In this document: piece by piece, positions 30,266-37,927 of the stretch
Layout: the number at the start of each line of letters is the position of its first letter
Position numbering within the stretch: position 1 is the first letter of the stretch
Assembly (NCBI RefSeq): GCF_051903065.1
Contig: NZ_CP178438.1
DNA length: 64,000 nucleotides
DNA from: Escherichia coli
Lineage (GTDB): Bacteria; Pseudomonadota; Gammaproteobacteria; Enterobacterales; Enterobacteriaceae
Reading direction: 5' to 3' (one strand)
The notes under the pieces: model-generated
The model's input: only the letters and a program-made list of their open reading frames with translations
Told to the model about the DNA's origin: nothing
Database searches by the model: none
Position numbers and translations under genes: made by a program

Positions 30266-31873
30266 CTAAATACTTATTTTAACATCTGTATATCTTTCTT
30301 GACCTTTAAATAAACCGAATTCGATCCATTCGATATCACCTTTATCAATGTTTGCCCCTGTTAAAAAACCACCGTCAAAGTTCATTGAGTCAGGGTAGAA
30401 ATCGAAATTTTGTACCTTATCTTTCCCTTTGTATTTGACGTGTAGAAAAATCTTCAGAGCACCATCTTTTGGCAAGGTAATATTTCTGTTAGTCTCGAAT
30501 GCAATACGCCCATCATTTGTAATATAAACGTTCTTAACATCCGCTTGGCGTGGAATTATGTTTTTGTTTACGACCATCTTTTTTCCGCTGAATACAATCG
30601 AGTAGTCCAGTTTCGCCATATTCCTTTCAATTGAAAGCACCCCATAGTACTTTCCATAAGACCACTTGTTATGGTAAGGATCAAACTTGTCTCCACTCTT
30701 GGCAAGTTTAGAAAAATAGAAATCAGGTATTCTCAACTCCCTTTTCCCTTGCGAGATTTGCTTGTCGATTAAATACTTTCTAACCTCTGATTGATGGAAA
30801 GTTTCTTTGTAAGATTCATACATCCAAAGGTATTGAGGTATAAAATACAATATAACCAAAGCAAATAATGAGCATGTCAAATATTTTTGAGTTAAAGTGA
30901 AAAAAGAATCCTTTAATAAAAAAGATACAGCAATCAAAACAAGAATCAAAGTGCCATTTGCAGCCCTGGGAGGATAGGAAGGTGCTGCAAACATAATTAA
31001 GGATGTGGATAATGCTGCAAATAAGAATATCAATGCTAATGTTGTTGATTTCTTATCTGTCTTTTCGCGCAAGAGATTTATTAATGCGATAATTGTGAAA
31101 GCCAGAAATAAAGGCCACATGATGGAAATGACATCGGGCATCCTGGAGTATAAATGCTCAACTAGCCTTTCAATTAAAGGTTTAGAGTACCAGGCGCTAA
31201 AAGATTTGGCTCTTTCATAATTTCCTGGAGCGGCAATTAAGGCGATGAATCCCGCTAAAGATAATAAGGTATAGATAAGCCCTCTATGGCGTAAAGACCT
31301 AATTATATACGCATTATATAAATAATAAATGCCAGAGAGAATAACAACTACCGCGCCAGTATTTTCGTTTGAGCACCCCGCCATCACTGCGAGAATGGAG
31401 GTTAAATAGATGTTATATCTTTTTATTACGCACAATAAGTATGCGCAAATGAACATGTTTGTCCAAAGGTAATTTGCTGAACCAACAATCCAGAAAGTGG
31501 TTTGCCCTAAATTTGTATTGCTTACCCAGTAAAGCATAAAAATAGTTAATATTTTTATGCAATCGAATTTATTTATCTCTCCTGCTGAAGAACCAATAAG
31601 AAATATTAAATAAACACTTGAAGTCAATGCTAGTGAATTTGCTATTGCTCTATAAAATTCAGGAATGGAAAGCATCGCTGTGCTGGCATAATCAGCCACT
31701 ATTCTGCCACTCCAGCTCTCATAGTGCTTTAAGTGCTCAGAAATACTTAATCCCTTTAACGCGTAAAGATAATCATCTGAATGCATGGGTGTATGCATGC
31801 AAATGCTAAGAGTAATAAAAAATATTACTAACAAAGATAATGTATGTAAAAAATAACTATTTATTCTAGGCAT
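30266..31873 (-). CDS. GtrC-like serotype-specific O-antigen glucosyltransferase (polytopic membrane N-domain plus soluble C-domain)
   Basis: 535-aa ORF, about 10 predicted TM segments then a roughly 200-aa hydrophilic domain; AT-rich; downstream of gtrB with 1-bp overlap. Confidence 0.65.
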   Translation of the reverse strand: MPRINSYFLHTLSLLVIFFITLSICMHTPMHSDDYLYALKGLSISEHLKHYESWSGRIVADYASTAMLSIPEFYRAIANSLALTSSVYLIFLIGSSAGEINKFDCIKILTIFMLYWVSNTNLGQTTFWIVGSANYLWTNMFICAYLLCVIKRYNIYLTSILAVMAGCSNENTGAVVVILSGIYYLYNAYIIRSLRHRGLIYTLLSLAGFIALIAAPGNYERAKSFSAWYSKPLIERLVEHLYSRMPDVISIMWPLFLAFTIIALINLLREKTDKKSTTLALIFLFAALSTSLIMFAAPSYPPRAANGTLILVLIAVSFLLKDSFFTLTQKYLTCSLFALVILYFIPQYLWMYESYKETFHQSEVRKYLIDKQISQGKRELRIPDFYFSKLAKSGDKFDPYHNKWSYGKYYGVLSIERNMAKLDYSIVFSGKKMVVNKNIIPRQADVKNVYITNDGRIAFETNRNITLPKDGALKIFLHVKYKGKDKVQNFDFYPDSMNFDGGFLTGANIDKGDIEWIEFGLFKGQERYTDVKISI

Positions 31874-32790
31874 TACTTATTATCCTTCAAAATATAACGA
31901 GGACGCTGCTTAACCTCGACATAAATTCTTCCTATATATTCACCCAGGACACCGATTCCGATCAACTGGATGCCTCCAAGAAACAGGGTAGAAACCAGTA
32001 AAGATGGATACCCACGCACGGCGTTACCGAATGCAATCGTGTCAAATATCATCCAAGCACCATAAAGAAAGGCAGCACCGGCAACGAACAGGCCAATGTA
32101 AGTCCACATGCGCAGCGGAAAGGTAGAGAAGCTGGTGATCCCCTCAAGGGCAAGGTTCCAGAGTTTCCAACCGTTGAACTTCGTGCTGCCAGCTACGCGT
32201 TCTGCGCGCGCATATTCAACCACATCAGTGCGTCCGCCAACCCAGCTCAATACGCCCTTCATGAACAGGTTGCGTTCTGGCATGAGCTTAATGTTTTCCA
32301 CTACTTCGCGAGACATGAGCCGGAAGTCGCCGACATTCTCTTCTATCTGAGGGTTGCTGATTTTGTTGTGAAGTTTATAGAACCACTCAGCAGATTTACG
32401 CTTCAGCCGGCTGTCAGTGGAGCGGTCAGATCGCTTAGCCAGCACCATATCAGCCCCGGCCTGCCACTTCTCGATGAGGTGAGGAATGACCTCAATCGGG
32501 TCCTGAAGGTCAACATCAATCGGGATAACCGCCTCACCAGTTGCGTGGTCAAGCCCTGCGAACAGTGCGGGCTCTTTACCGAAATTACGGGTGAAGGAAA
32601 GAGGAACGACAAGCGGATCAGCCACAGCAAGCGCGTTTATAATTGATTCTGTCGCGTCTTTGCTGCCGTCATTTATGAAGACTATCTCGACTTCATGCTG
32701 CTGAAGCCCTTCAAATTCCCGAACAGTTTTATAAAAAATAGGTATCGCGTCTTCTTCGTTAAAGACGGGAACGACCAGAGAAATTTTCAT
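31873..32790 (-). CDS. gtrB: Bactoprenol glucosyltransferase GtrB (GT2 family)
   Basis: 305-aa ORF starting [13 protein letters not shown] with DxD-type region and two C-terminal TM helices. Confidence 0.9.
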
Positions 32791-33149
32791 TTCGCATCCC
32801 TAAAGACAATGAACTTTGAATAAATAAAACCGCACACCAGACTGATGGCGGAGAAGGTGATAAGAGTGATAATTGGAGGAAGCGAGCACTTATCAGCAGC
32901 CCATCCAACAGTAGCACTCAGTGTTCCCATGAACCCGACATATAACATGTAGCGCATCGTTGTAGTCGATGCTTTGAATGTGAATTTTGCATTCGCGAAG
33001 AAGCTAAAGCTCACAGCCACAACGAAACCTGCGAAGTTTGCCAGAGCCTGATTGGTATGCGCGGCATAGATACATACACCAAAAACCACCCAGTGTATAA
33101 GTGTGTTCAGCACACCAATCGAGGTGTACTTTGCAAATAGCTTTAACAT
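32787..33149 (-). CDS. gtrA: GtrA flippase-like small membrane protein
   Basis: 120-aa four-TM ORF directly upstream of gtrB with 4-bp overlap. Confidence 0.85.
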
Positions 33150-33454
33150 TTCTTCTATCAGCTAATAATCAAAGGCATGAAGTCTATCATCCAAGTCTCA
33201 ATCGATCGATGACTTGCTGTGGTTGATGAGACAAAACTGATGCACACAAAGATTTGCACTGGATTGCAAGGCTTTGTGCTCTTCGATAGTTGTTAAGGTG
33301 GATCACTCCGGCTTTTCATCAATCCAGTCCGCCCACCACTGCATCATCTCCCTGCGCTTATCGAGATACTGAGCATGGTTGTAAATTCAACTAACCCAGT
33401 GCATTGACAAAAAATTAGTGCAAGAAGACAAAAATCACCTTGCGCTAATGCTCT

Positions 33455-33625
33455 GTCTCAGGTCACTAATGCTATCTAAGTAGTTGATTCATAGTGACTG
33501 GATATGTTGTGTTTTGTAGCATTACGCAGTCTATTTATTAGACTAAAGATATTGTAATGCATTGATATTAATGGTTTTTAATGTTTCACGTTCAGCTTTT
33601 TTATACTAACTTGAGCGAAACGGGA
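33455..33625. other. attR (P-O-B'): diverged P arm, core, chromosomal B' arm
   Basis: P-arm-like sequence (...CAGGTCACTAATGCTATCTAAGTAGTTGATTCATAGTGACTGGATATGTTGTG...) roughly 80% similar to lambda P arm by eye; core at 33595-33609; then CTTGAGCGAAACGGG. Confidence 0.8.
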
Positions 33626-33699
33626 AGGTAAAAAGACAAAAAGTTGTTTTTAATACCTTTAAGTGATACCAGATAGCATTGCGCCATCTGGCAGAGTAA

Positions 33700-34176
33700 T
33701 TAACTAAACATCGCGGTAATCGATGCGCTTGCCAGAGAGTGGAAATGAACGTTAAACCCGACCATCGCGCCGCTGGCTCCTTCATCGACATCAATACGCT
33801 CTACATCCAGCGCGTGAACGGTAAAAATGTAGCGATGGGTTTCGCCTTTCGGCGGCGCTGCGCCATCGTATCCGGTTTTACCAAAATCGGTACGCGTCTG
33901 CAAAACGCCGTCTGGCATTGCTACCAGACCAGAGCCAAACCCTTGCGGTAATACGCGGGTATCAGCGGGTAAATTAACAACTACCCAGTGCCACTAGCCG
34001 GAGCCGGTTGGCGCATCCGGGTCGTAGCAGGTGACGACAAAACTTTTCGTTCCCGCAGGAACATCATCCCACGCCAGATGCGGTGAAATATTATCGCCAT
34101 CGTAACCCATGCCGTTAAAGACATGACGATGTGGCAACTTATCGCCATCGCGCAGATCATTACTGATGAGTTTCAT
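33700..34176 (-). pseudogene. ybhB: ybhB (PEBP/RKIP-family protein) with in-frame amber stop
   Basis: Track ORFs 33994-34176 and 33700-33918 are one frame split by TAG at 33994-33996, where I recall Trp in K-12 YbhB; downstream sequence WHWVVVNLPADTRVLPQGFGSGLVAMPDG... stays in frame. Confidence 0.85.
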
Positions 34177-34284
34177 TAGAATGCCTCCGGGAAACCTCGG
34201 CCTTCAGGCCGGGGAGGAAAGGAGGCGGTTTTCCGACTAACTGTACTTTGCATAATTACATTTTCCTCTTTAGTATGTGAACAC

Positions 34285-35401
34285 ATGAAACGCGCATATA
34301 AATACCGGTTTTACCCGACAACTGAGCAGGCTGAGCTTTTAGCTCAGACGTTCGGCTGTGTGCGCTTCGTCTACAATTCCATCCTTCGTTGGCGTACCGA
34401 TGCGTACTACGAGCGAAAGGAAAAGATCGGTTATCTACAGGCCAACGCTCGCCTTACGGCGCTCAAAAAAGAGCCTGAATACATATGGCTGAATGTCCCC
34501 TCCAGCAGTCGTTGCGCCACCAACAAGCCGCCTTTGCTAACTTCTTTGCCGGACGAGCTGCATATCCGGCTTTCAAAAGCAAACGGCACAAACAGGTGGC
34601 TGAGTTCACTGCCAGCGCGTTTAAACACCGTGACGGCGAGTTGTATATAGCAAAAGCAAGTCGCCTCTGGATGTTCGCTGGAGTCGAGAATTACCCTCTG
34701 CGCCGTCAACCGTTACCATTTCCAGAGATAGCGCTGGCAGGTACTTTGTTTCCTGCCTGTGTGAGTTTGAACCTGTATCAATGCCTGTTACCGCTAAAAC
34801 GGTCGGCATTGATGTGGGCTTAAAAGATTTATTCGTTACCGATACCGGATTCAAAACCGACAATCCCCGCCACACCGCTAAATATGCGAAGCGATTAACG
34901 CTGCTACAGCGATGTTTAAGCAGGAAGCAAAAAGGCTCAAGAAACCGTATTAAAGCCCGCTTAAAGGTCGCCCGACTCCACGCGAAAATCGCCGATTGCC
35001 GGATGGACAATCTACACAAGTTGTCCCGCAAACTGATTAACGAAAACCAAGTTGTTTGCGTCGAATCCCTCAAGGTGAAAAACATGATCCGCAACCCGAA
35101 GCTGTCTAAAGCAATAGCTGACGCAGGCTGGAGCGAACTTGTTCGCCAGCTCCAGTACAAAGGCAAATGGGCCGAGCGGTCAGTGGTCGCCATTGACCAG
35201 TATTTACCGTCCTCAAAATGCTGTAGTTGCTGCGGTTTCACCATGCAAAAAATGCCTCTTAATGTTCGTAAATGGCACTGCCCTGAATGCGGCGCAGACC
35301 ATGATCGCGACATTAACGCGGCACGTAATATTAAAGCTGCCGGGCTGGCAGTGTTAGCCCACGGAGAGCCTGTAAACCCTGAATCGCAGCACGCGGCTTA
35401 G
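34285..35401 (+). pseudogene. tnpB: IS200/IS605-family tnpB (RNA-guided nuclease family), two frameshifts
   Basis: N-terminus MKRAYKYRFYPTTEQAELLAQTFGCVRFVYN; middle and C-terminal parts (VTISRDSAGRYFVSCLCEF, GIDVGLKDLF, CxxC...CxxC zinc finger) lie in two other frames; no tnpA nearby. Confidence 0.85.
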
Positions 35402-35511
35402 GTTCGGCTCGTTGAAGTGGGAATCCCCGTCATTCGGGGCGGGGAGCCGTCAAGAACCCTCCTTTCTAGTTTGCAGAAAGTGTAGCCAGAAACCCTCACG
35501 CTGACTTCCCG

Positions 35512-36801
35512 TTATTGGCAAAAAAATGTTTCATCCTGCACCGCACGGTTAACCGCTGCGGTCAGACGCTGCAACTGTTGCGGGAGAATAATATAGGGCG
35601 GCATCAGGTAAATCAGCTTGCCAAAAGGCCGGATCCAGACACCCTGTTCGACAAAGAATTTTTGCAGCGCCGCCATATTCACCGGACGAGTTGTTTCGAC
35701 TACGCCGATTGCCCCCAGCACGCGCACATCGGCAACCATTTCGGCATCACGGGCGGGGGCAAGTTGCTCGCGCAGCTGTACTTCAATAGCCGCCACCTGT
35801 TGCTGCCAGTCGCCAGATTCGAGAATCGCCAGGCTGGCGTTAGCTGCCGCGCAGGCCAGCGGATTACCCATAAAAGTTGGCCCGTGCATAAAGCAGCCGG
35901 CTTCGCCGTTACTGATGGTTTCTGCAACCTCGCGCGTGGTGAGTGTGGCGGAAAGGGTCATTGTGCCGCCGGTTAAGGCTTTACCGAGGCACAAAATGTC
36001 CGGCGCGATTTCTGCATGTTCACAGGCAAACAGTTTGCCGGTACGACCAAATCCGGTGGCGATCTCGTCGGCAATCAGCAAGATACCTTCGCGATCGCAC
36101 ATTTTGCGGATTCGTTTTAACCATTGCGGATGGTACATGCGCATCCCGCCTGCGCCCTGGACAATCGGCTCAATGATCACCGCCGCGATTTCATGACGAT
36201 GCGCCGCCATCAGGCGGGCAAAGCCCACCATATCGCGCTCATCCCATTCACCATCCATGCGGCTTTGCGGGGCGGGAGCAAACAAGTTTTCTGGCAGATA
36301 GCCTTTCCACAGGCTGTGCATTGAGTTGTCCGGATCGCACACCGACATCGCGCCAAAGGTATCGCCATGATAACCATTGCGGAAGGTCAGAAAACGCTGG
36401 CGCGCTTCGCCTTTGGCTTGCCAGTACTGCAACGCCATTTTCATCGCCACTTCCACCGCTACGGAACCGGAGTCCGCGAGAAAAACGCACTCCAGCGGTT
36501 GCGGCGTCATCGCCACCAGTTTGCGGCACAGCTCAATGGCTGGCGCATGAGTGATACCGCCAAACATCACATGCGACATGGCATCAATTTGCGTCTTCAT
36601 CGCCACATTAAGCTGCGGGTGATTGTAGCCGTGGATCGCCGCCCACCAGGACGACATACCGTCAACCAGGCGTCTGCCGTCAGACAAAATTAGCTCGCAA
36701 CCTTCGGCGCTTGCCACCGGATAAACCGGTAGCGGGGAGGTCATGGATGTGTATGGGTGCCAGATATGGCGTTGGTCAAAGGCAAGATCGTCCGTTGTCA
36801 T
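35512..36801 (-). CDS. bioA: Adenosylmethionine-8-amino-7-oxononanoate aminotransferase BioA
   Basis: 429 aa from [17 protein letters not shown]. Confidence 0.95.
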
Positions 36802-36808
36802 AATCGAC

Positions 36809-36843
36809 TTGTAAACCAAATTGAAAAGATTTAGGTTTACAAG
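36809..36843. promoter_or_regulatory. bio operator (BirA site) in the divergent bioA/bioBFCD promoter
   Basis: TTGTAAACCAAATTGAAAAGATTTAGGTTTACAAG imperfect palindrome between bioA and bioB. Confidence 0.85.
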
Positions 36844-36886
36844 TCTACACCGAATTAACAACAAAAAACACGTTTGGAGAAGCCCC

Positions 36887-37927
36887 ATGGCTCACCGCCC
36901 ACGCTGGACATTGTCGCAAGTCACAGAATTATTTGAAAAACCGTTGCTGGATCTGCTGTTTGAAGCGCAGCAGGTGCATCGCCAGCATTTCGATCCTCGT
37001 CAGGTGCAGGTCAGCACGTTGCTGTCGATTAAGACCGGAGCTTGTCCGGAAGATTGCAAATACTGCCCGCAAAGCTCGCGCTACAAAACCGGGCTGGAAG
37101 CCGAGCGGTTGATGGAAGTTGAACAGGTGCTGGAGTCGGCGCGCAAAGCGAAAGCTGCGGGATCGACGCGTTTCTGTATGGGCGCGGCGTGGAAGAATCC
37201 CCACGAACGCGATATGCCGTACCTGGAACAAATGGTGCAGGGGGTAAAAGCGATGGGACTGGAGGCGTGTATGACGCTGGGTACGTTGAGTGAATCTCAG
37301 GCGCAGCGCCTTGCGAATGCCGGGCTGGATTACTACAACCACAACCTCGACACCTCGCCGGAGTTTTACGGCAATATCATCACCACACGCACTTATCAGG
37401 AACGCCTCGATACGCTGGAAAAAGTGCGCGATGCCGGGATCAAAGTCTGCTCAGGTGGCATTGTGGGCTTAGGCGAAACGGTAAAAGATCGCGCCGGATT
37501 ATTGCTGCAACTGGCAAACCTGCCGACGCCGCCGGAAAGCGTGCCAATCAACATGCTGGTGAAGGTGAAAGGCACGCCGCTTGCCGATAACGATGACGTT
37601 GATGCCTTTGATTTTATTCGCACCATTGCGGTCGCGCGGATCATGATGCCGACCTCTTACGTGCGCCTTTCTGCCGGACGCGAGCAGATGAACGAACAGA
37701 CTCAGGCGATGTGCTTTATGGCAGGCGCAAACTCGATTTTCTACGGTTGCAAACTGCTGACCACGCCGAATCCGGAAGAAGATAAAGACCTGCAACTGTT
37801 CCGCAAACTGGGGCTAAATCCGCAGCAAACTGCCGTGCTGGCGGGCGATAACGAACAACAGCAGCGTCTGGAACAGGCACTGATGACCCCGGACACTGAC
37901 GAATATTACAACGCGGCAGCACTATGA
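36887..37927 (+). CDS. bioB: Biotin synthase BioB (radical SAM)
   Basis: 346 aa from [12 protein letters not shown]; CxxxCxxC motif (CPEDCKYC). Confidence 0.95.

Follow-up and report, generated by a model that had tools for sequence, protein, structure and literature searches.

Between ybhB and bioA, two genes that lie in the same direction on the minus strand just as the first-pass annotation had read them, the DNA analysed here carries a solitary TnpB-family gene within a short mobile element. The whole stretch of DNA, 64 kb in length, is referred to below as the window, and all positions are counted in it. The genes at the locus, the element and its target site are the following:

33700..34176, minus strand: ybhB, whose ATG adjoins the left end of the element
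33994-33996, minus strand: amber codon in ybhB (TGG to TAG, codon 61)
34172..34176, plus strand: target site TTCAT (core TCAT, predicted TAM), flanking the left end
34177..35453, plus strand: whole gipA/TnpB element, 1,277 bp, IS200/IS605 family, without tnpA (IS1341 type)
35512..36801, minus strand: bioA, intact, running towards tnpB; 58 bp separate its stop codon from the right end

The borders of the element were set by comparing the occupied site with the empty one in strain EC11. The empty ybhB-bioA site reads TTTCAT/GAACCC (at greater length, GATGAGTTTCAT/GAACCCTCCTTTC), and the occupied site reads TTTCAT/TAGAAT...GTCAA/GAACCC (at greater length, TTTCAT/TAGAATGCC...GAGCCGTCAA/GAACCCTCC), with no target-site duplication. 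Because the last base of the flank is T and the last base of the element is A, the border is unambiguous. Moreover, the border base at the right end is common to the copies in Serratia, Klebsiella, Gifsy-1 and phages, where homology ends at the same point. The first-pass annotation had given the feature as 34285-35511, a span that this comparison replaces with 34177-35453. It had also put the K-12 interval at about 0.1 kb; the empty spacer is indeed short, with an actual figure of 58 bp in the element-free strain EC11. Of the ybhB-bioA interval, no more than the final 62 bases find a match in most E. coli genomes.

The element carries a single gene. The Y1 transposase gene (tnpA) is absent inside the 1,277 bp, and tblastn of the 64-kb window found neither tnpA (two TnpA queries, best E 0.12) nor a second tnpB, in agreement with the earlier description of a tnpB without tnpA between ybhB and bioA. 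A repeat search of the element returned no terminal inverted repeats and no flanking direct repeats, features that are not expected in the IS200/IS605 family. What characterizes the IS1341 type of this family is found here: sub-terminal hairpins at both ends (34183-34226 and 35424-35445), no duplication, and insertion 3' of a fixed short sequence. The TCAT at the left flank is unchanged in 12 of 12 aligned copies and is predicted to be the TAM of the element. Read on the other strand, the CAT of the TTCAT flank is the start codon of ybhB, and therefore the element separates the ybhB ATG from its native Shine-Dalgarno sequence.

The gene itself occupies most of the element, and its features are given here:

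34285..35401, plus strand: tnpB (gipA) pseudogene in three frames (34285-34495, 34496-34654, 34655-35401), stop TAG at 35399-35401
34495..34496, plus strand: junction of a 13-bp deletion that removed ATGTTTCCTGCGT (codons 71-75 in the intact protein)
34654..34655, plus strand: junction of a 1-bp deletion; G of AAAGAGC lost to give AAAAGC, codon 128, in the AAAAGCAAG tract
34781..35401, plus strand: residual 206-aa ORF from an internal ATG, keeping the RuvC D-E-D and the CxxC...CxxC zinc finger

As the intact reference allele we used WP_000817269.1, the 376-aa TnpB of strain SCU-125, which is identical to the protein that the Crohn's-disease strain LF82, an adherent-invasive E. coli (AIEC), carries at the same ybhB-bioA site. 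This protein scores 369.5 bits against the NCBIfam model guided_TnpB (NF040570; cut-off 100), carries the Pfam domains PF12323, PF01385 and PF07282 (HTH_OrfB_IS605, OrfB_IS605 and Cas12f1-like_TNB), and matches the ISDra2 TnpB structures 8bf8, 8exa and 8h1j with an E value of 9e-75. The domain set of a TnpB (N-terminal HTH/WED-REC, RuvC and zinc-finger TNB) is present in it. The first-pass annotation had called a solo gene of the TnpB family, and these NCBIfam, Pfam and structural matches rule that assignment in. By its sequence, the intact E. coli protein is a typical TnpB with a predicted nuclease role. Between hosts, dN/dS in the family is 0.06-0.15, and therefore intact copies are kept under purifying selection.

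The window holds no single full-length TnpB ORF, and its gene is a pseudogene and not a functional member of the family. With the intact allele as the query, tblastn recovers residues 1-70 at 34285-34494, 76-129 at 34497-34658 and 127-376 at 34649-35398, three fragments that are 98-100% identical to the query. Two frame changes had been proposed at first pass, and alignment to the SCU-125 allele placed two frame-breaking deletions: the 13-bp deletion at 34495/34496 falls within the stretch expected for the first lesion (34485-34650), and the 1-bp deletion at 34654/34655 falls in the tract expected for the second (34640-34660). The second lies in an A-rich tract; the first, a loss of 13 bp, is not a homopolymer slip. 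Besides the deletions, comparison of the window gene with the B2 allele shows six synonymous changes and two that alter the protein (R215C and G302E). The zinc finger and RuvC-like C-terminus are otherwise intact, as had been proposed, with all seven residues kept in the last frame: the RuvC codons lie at 34811-34813 (D), 35063-35065 (E) and 35309-35311 (D), the zinc finger is coded at 35222-35290, and the residues align with D191, E278, D361 and C331/C334/C351/C354 of ISDra2 TnpB (8bf8). For ECNB21-M121 and the Ecuadorian strains 23CRST027 and 23CRST031, RefSeq enters this gene as 'RNA-guided endonuclease InsQ/TnpB family protein, frameshifted'.

Such frameshifts could be sequencing or assembly errors in a strain that actually has an intact tnpB, and the second lesion does lie in an A-rich tract (AAAAGC), where 1-bp errors are frequent. 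However, the first lesion removed 13 bp of complex sequence, and a 40-mer over its junction occurs in 7 of 5,426 complete E. coli genomes; the 40-mer over the 1-bp junction occurs in the same seven and in no others. These genomes are separate assemblies from different laboratories, hosts and countries, with sources that include meat in China, human faeces in Ecuador, calves and a farm environment. As both deletions are common to the same seven separately assembled genomes, they are inherited mutations and not read errors, and an origin in sequencing is scarcely credible. The tnpB deletions are genuine mutations inherited in a small clade. A probe over the junction of ybhB with the left end matches 341 of the 5,426 complete genomes (~6%), and the broken allele is found in seven of these carriers (~2%). 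In the 7.3-kb stretch around the feature, 3 bases differ from strain ECNB21-M121.

A broken gene may still yield an active product, here by way of programmed frameshifting, or else in the form of a 206-aa RuvC/zinc-finger fragment that stands alone and starts at ATG 34781. The fragment is in principle possible, given that ORF 34781-35401 keeps both the D-E-D residues and the zinc finger, and a transcript from the conserved left-end promoter would still span it. Frameshifting, on the other hand, would need two separate corrections, one for the 13-bp and one for the 1-bp loss, and no slippery-site features were seen. The fragment would be made without residues 1-171 (HTH/WED/REC), the region that holds the guide RNA and reads the TAM in the ISDra2 TnpB structures 8exa and 8h1j, and no Shine-Dalgarno sequence was noted before 34781 when the sequence was read. 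Moreover, the broken allele is limited to 7 of the 341 carriers and has already acquired two non-synonymous changes. Residual activity in either form is highly improbable. Another candidate identity, the nuclease-dead TnpB-like repressor TldR, was ruled out, since the RuvC residues are present and the ORF is broken.

Unlike the coding sequence, the non-coding parts of the element are intact in the window. Those at the right end are as follows:

35334..35453, plus strand: guide-RNA (omega/right-end RNA) scaffold, covering the right end and the final 68 nt of tnpB
35454..35469, plus strand: predicted guide segment GAACCCTCCTTTCTAG, the 16 bases just after the right end

A guide-RNA region had been expected at the 3' end and right flank of tnpB (35330-35500), and a covariance-model search placed the scaffold inside it. 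The scaffold includes the right-end hairpin (35424-35431 with 35438-35445) and the terminal GTCAA; one of its helices (35336-35352) is part of the coding sequence, and another contains the tnpB stop codon. The structure was derived from two alignments. The first held 13 right ends, with the window and SCU-125 included and the other copies taken from Serratia, Klebsiella, Salmonella and Arsenophonus plasmids and from Gifsy-1, P1-like, Klebsiella and Pseudomonas phages. Its consensus structure has 25 pairs, 8 of them with compensatory changes, and 98.8% of the cells are paired, against 36-51% when the partners are slid; the observed covariation was reached by 0 of 500 shuffles. The second alignment held 14 copies and left out the E. 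coli chromosomal copies of the ybhB site. RNAalifold gave 30 pairs for it, 16 of them compensatory, and the covariance model built from it finds 35334-35453 of the window at full length (133.3 bits, E 3.4e-31), with all pairs standard.

An Rfam scan of 33000-37000 (E <= 1) returned no curated scaffold family and nothing in the element except weak chance matches; the chance matches of the scan were HgcC and sot0042 over the left-end hairpin and DicF in bioA. Folded as a single sequence, 35290-35473 has a z-score of -0.03. Transposition, too, requires the right-end hairpin, in the form of single-stranded DNA, so covariation there does not discriminate between a role as DNA and a role as RNA. A role in single-stranded DNA accounts less readily for the helices within the coding sequence (35336-35352) and for the long-range ones. 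The scaffold is intact in this dead copy, from which the RNA may still be produced, and, as a weaker possibility, it could be loaded by a compatible TnpB in trans. The guide of a TnpB lies immediately 3' of the right end, and here the 16 bases at this position, GAACCCTCCTTTCTAG, are identical to the sequence after TCAT in strains with an empty site. Such a match is what the model in which TnpB re-cuts the empty donor site predicts.

Two further features lie at the left end:

34183..34226, plus strand: imperfect palindrome GCCTCC...GGCC TTCA GGCC...GGAGGC, read from the sequence
34248..34276, plus strand: putative tnpB promoter, with -35 TTGCAT at 34248-34253, a 17-nt spacer and -10 TAGTAT at 34271-34276

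The right-end covariance model matches this end weakly (34161-34223, E 0.059). The putative promoter scores under the threshold of a generic promoter scan; its -35-like hexamer and -10-like TAnnAT, together with GTGAA, are kept in position across 12 diverged copies. The -10 TAGTAT ends 8 nt before the tnpB ATG, a proximity that suggests a leaderless or near-leaderless tnpB mRNA transcribed from this left-end promoter.

The position of the left end also raises the question of whether the element persists through non-coding parts co-opted by the host, be it a Shine-Dalgarno sequence or outward promoter for ybhB, or antisense control of the bioA-ybhB message. The insertion parts ybhB from its own GGAGG, and in place of the displaced one the complement of the left end offers a second GGAGG, 7 nt ahead of the ybhB ATG. 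In addition, one marginal promoter-like site points outward at ybhB (34281-34252, minus strand, TTCACA-18-AATTAT with TG), and ybhB remains intact in most carriers, for example LF82, SCU-125 and ECNB21-M121. However, the left-end GGAGG is an arm of the palindrome and is predicted to be paired within the left-end hairpin on the ybhB-sense transcript, which weakens the case for it as a helpful substitute ribosome-binding site. This pairing is predicted to have a modest effect in E. coli and a very strong one in Gifsy-1 (-52.7 kcal/mol, z = -7.6). A generic promoter and terminator scan of the element gave counts equal to those in shuffled sequence, so that promoter-like sites are no commoner than by chance, and on the bioA-ybhB strand of the element it revealed no convincing terminator that would stop transcripts of bioA from running on into ybhB. 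A literature search on TnpB and ybhB found nothing relevant.

Furthermore, ybhB is a nonsense pseudogene in the window strain, with nothing left to regulate. Its amber allele occurs in 2 of 5,426 genomes, only in 23CRST027 and 23CRST031 (Ecuador, human faeces), and RefSeq marks the amber-bearing gene 'internal stop'. With codon 61 changed to a stop, the effect on ybhB that had been proposed for the element is therefore moot in this strain. The persistence of the element is explained simply by its being without excision machinery, and co-option is unlikely.

The window copy is very probably a dead gipA element of the IS1341 type, with its tnpB destroyed by two deletions and its non-coding parts intact. 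Single-strand 'peel and paste' insertion on the 3' side of TTCAT would have brought the element into an ancestor, right at the start codon of ybhB, and its descendants would have kept it at this one ybhB-bioA site. In one small clade, tnpB would then have been lost, first to the 13-bp and later to the 1-bp deletion. Because translation would end early after the first deletion, WED/REC would never be joined to the RuvC and zinc-finger parts, and no RNA-guided nuclease would be made; the loss of the protein is predicted to be complete. What would remain are the hairpins of both ends, the guide-RNA scaffold and the putative leaderless promoter, and the encoded guide (GAACCCTCCTTTCTAG beside TCAT) would still point to the unoccupied ybhB-bioA site. 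Where the allele is intact, TnpB would cut that site and so prevent loss of the element. With no TnpA in the 64-kb window, the element cannot move by itself, and without TnpB it can no longer defend itself, although a TnpA or a compatible TnpB may be encoded elsewhere in the genome. It would now be decaying, as would the adjacent amber-bearing ybhB.

The use of a start codon as the insertion site is not peculiar to ybhB. Left flanks were compared at the E. coli locus, where the window and SCU-125 count as one insertion, and at ten further sites with resolvable ends. At all of these sites the left flank ends in TCAT, and its CAT starts a minus-strand ORF of 127-339 aa, which in E. coli is the 158-aa ybhB of the intact carriers. 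The other starts hit are those of traX (Serratia), traW (Klebsiella), tail protein L (Arsenophonus), gpU (Gifsy-1), a head-tail gene of Klebsiella phages, a gene of a Pseudomonas phage and pro (P1-like phages), together with starts on three IMG/VR contigs. At no fewer than eight sites (at least 8), the complement of the last bases of the element (TTGA) supplies the in-frame TGA of an upstream minus-strand ORF, these ORFs being from 127 to >470 codons long. With a TGA supplied by the element on one side and a CAT start on the other, the original site was therefore an ATGA overlap of stop and start, and both genes stay whole. Among 614 random ATGA sites in the window, which served as the null, 16% are followed by a long ORF downstream, and 0.7% are flanked by long ORFs on the two sides. 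There are exceptions: one site, seen in three contigs, has TCAT before an ORF of only 12 codons, and another copy lies between genes, behind a hairpin. A further copy is flanked by ACAT and stands outside the ORF counts, and several copies have truncated left ends.

This pattern may mean that gipA-type elements without tnpA are adapted to operon life, lying antisense on ATGA overlaps and leaving both host genes whole, a reading that we put forward tentatively and with the balance somewhat against it. The right-end TCAA may recreate the upstream TGA in frame, and the left-end GGAGG may serve 7-8 nt before the downstream ATG. The ybhB insertion may be one instance, in which the start codon is used and there is no upstream overlap. 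The enrichment of ATGA junctions may reflect targeting, adaptation, or the survival of harmless insertions in dense phage and plasmid operons. If adaptation rather than survivorship is at work, the junction habit could explain how tnpB-only elements persist in tight phage and conjugation operons. No description of the insertion-site pattern was found in literature searches on ISEc42 and on TnpB with Gifsy-1, and a search found no paper linking TnpB, TAM and TCAT. The habit of inserting at junctions is the only part of this work that might repay more effort.

The copy in the window matters little in itself: it is a correctly annotated, frameshifted pseudogene of a known mobile element. The first-pass annotation was right in its TnpB call but missed both the known gipA element and the existing RefSeq annotation as frameshifted. 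It also missed that the lesions are inherited, that the insert adjoins the ybhB start codon, and that ybhB is a nonsense pseudogene in this strain. Compared with the gipA element of Gifsy-1 (AF246666), the element is 85.8% identical in nucleotides with both ends included, and the intact E. coli allele shares 86% of its amino acids with Gifsy-1 GipA over 376/376 aa and no gaps. GipA had already been recognised as TnpB-like (PMC3627910), and the LF82 genome paper lists gipA in LF82, 536, CFT073 and E2348/69 and as absent from MG1655 (PMC2941450). CFT073 and E2348/69 are among the 341 matches to the junction probe, and LF82 was checked directly at the ybhB-bioA site. Homology and the distribution among strains make it very likely that the 'gipA' marker gene of E. 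coli is the ybhB-bioA element locus.

This identity bears on the use of gipA as a marker of adherent-invasive E. coli, for which the association with the pathotype was not reproduced (PMC7205867; PMC5807354). What typing by PCR or BLAST detects, however, is a TnpB gene with a single, fixed place in the chromosome. Since gipA can be present but dead, typing by presence or absence reflects phylogeny rather than function. Stanley in 2000 and Vazeille in 2016 (cited in PMC2941450 and PMC7205867) reportedly described a role of gipA in Peyer's-patch survival or colonisation, the phenotype from which the gene has its name.

How does the element compare with known systems? It resembles a TldR in being a TnpB relative fixed beside a host gene without TnpA. 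The TldRs, which Wiegand et al. are said to have described in 2024, reportedly lost their RuvC residues and kept an intact ORF. The likeness to ISDra2 is closer: its TnpB, seen with the omega/right-end RNA in 8bf8, 8exa and 8h1j, has a like domain order, D-E-D and zinc finger, and its guide-RNA scaffold likewise runs across the 3' end of the gene into the right end. In contrast, ISDra2 carries tnpA and uses TTGAT, whereas the E. coli element is without tnpA and has a TCAT flank. ISEc42, the name given in the annotation of the P1-like phage vB_EcoM-673R5, belongs to the same subfamily with the same architecture, with a TCAT flank at the start codon of pro and a GTCAA end. However, it is ~80% identical in nucleotides over the gene only, its left end cannot be aligned to that of the window by BLAST, and its right-end hairpin differs fully in sequence, with compensating changes. 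Identity with ISEc42 was rejected on these grounds, and by customary IS naming practice it is most simply treated as related but distinct.

The gipA element of Gifsy-1 (the 'Peyer's patch-specific virulence factor') is likewise without tnpA and ends in GTCAA, and the TCAT at its left flank holds the start codon of gpU. It differs in its host, Salmonella, in its prophage site between the tail genes Z and U, in having an intact gene, and in a left-end palindrome that is a perfect 20-bp stem as opposed to the imperfect one of the E. coli copy. The gipA locus of LF82 and other B2 strains (WP_000817269.1) has the same ybhB-bioA site, the same ends and ~98% nucleotide identity. The window copy is set apart from it by the 13-bp and 1-bp deletions, R215C, G302E and the six synonymous changes, and is no longer able to encode the protein.

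Elements of the gipA type are recurrently found at ATGA stop/start overlaps, where they lie antisense to operons such as those of tra genes and phage tail or head genes. This pattern was drawn from related copies at other loci (L008-L016, L038, L048 and L049) together with the element ends in the window (34172-34176 and 35450-35453). At these sites the flanking TCAT is the start codon of the downstream gene, while the TCAA of the right end restores the TGA stop of the upstream gene, in frame. Both ORF conditions hold at 0.7% of random ATGA sites.

The right-end covariance model has a weak second match in the window at 34161-34223 (+), on the left-end hairpin (14.7 bits, E 0.059), which fits the hairpin design common to both ends in this element family. 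Matches of Rfam HgcC and sot0042 to the same hairpin are weak and were attributed to chance. The left end also contains a promoter-like site directed at ybhB; it overlaps with the putative promoter of tnpB, which is on the opposite strand:

34252-34281, - strand: TTCACA, 18-nt spacer, AATTAT, with TG; a consensus match only.

ybhB itself carries an amber codon, with TAG replacing TGG at codon 61 (33994-33996, - strand), and is labeled "internal stop" in RefSeq. Among 5,426 complete E. coli genomes, this allele is found in two only, 23CRST027 and 23CRST031 from Ecuador, both of which belong to the seven-genome clade with the broken tnpB. Directly downstream of ybhB are the following genes:

A gene for a DUF6056 protein, one for a GT2 glycosyltransferase and a further small gene (about 30266-33149, - strand, and 33303-33386).

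The small gene is annotated as "bactoprenol glucosyl transferase", and a truncated hypothetical gene comes next. In their annotations and order, the DUF6056, GT2 and small genes resemble a prophage-derived O-antigen glucosylation cassette of the gtrA/gtrB/gtrC type. In LF82 and SCU-125, which have an intact element at ybhB, and in the empty-site strain EC11, the position of these genes is occupied by ybhC, so an insertion has taken place near the lambda attachment region.

Copies related to the element were also encountered in phages. In Pseudomonas phage PACT201, a homologous tnpB region (1390-2708) has no tnpB annotation and holds two short - strand "hypothetical protein" ORFs. Compared with the copy in phage phita81A it has small indels, some of them in the regions of the zinc finger and the right end, and is probably another decayed copy. 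Seventeen "viral" contigs from IMG/VR (L021-L037) terminate exactly at the E. coli tnpB gene of this element; these may be prophage predictions with the boundary set at the element.

Fragments of the element family are present on hundreds of Klebsiella plasmids (plasmid matches H41-H69; L019). They consist of 61 bp from the left end, 270 bp from the right end or the 3' half, and the PLSDB table, which is incomplete, lists no gene for them. At the plasmid locus L019, an IS200/IS605 tnpA has a right-end fragment close by on its downstream side and could be an autonomous partner.
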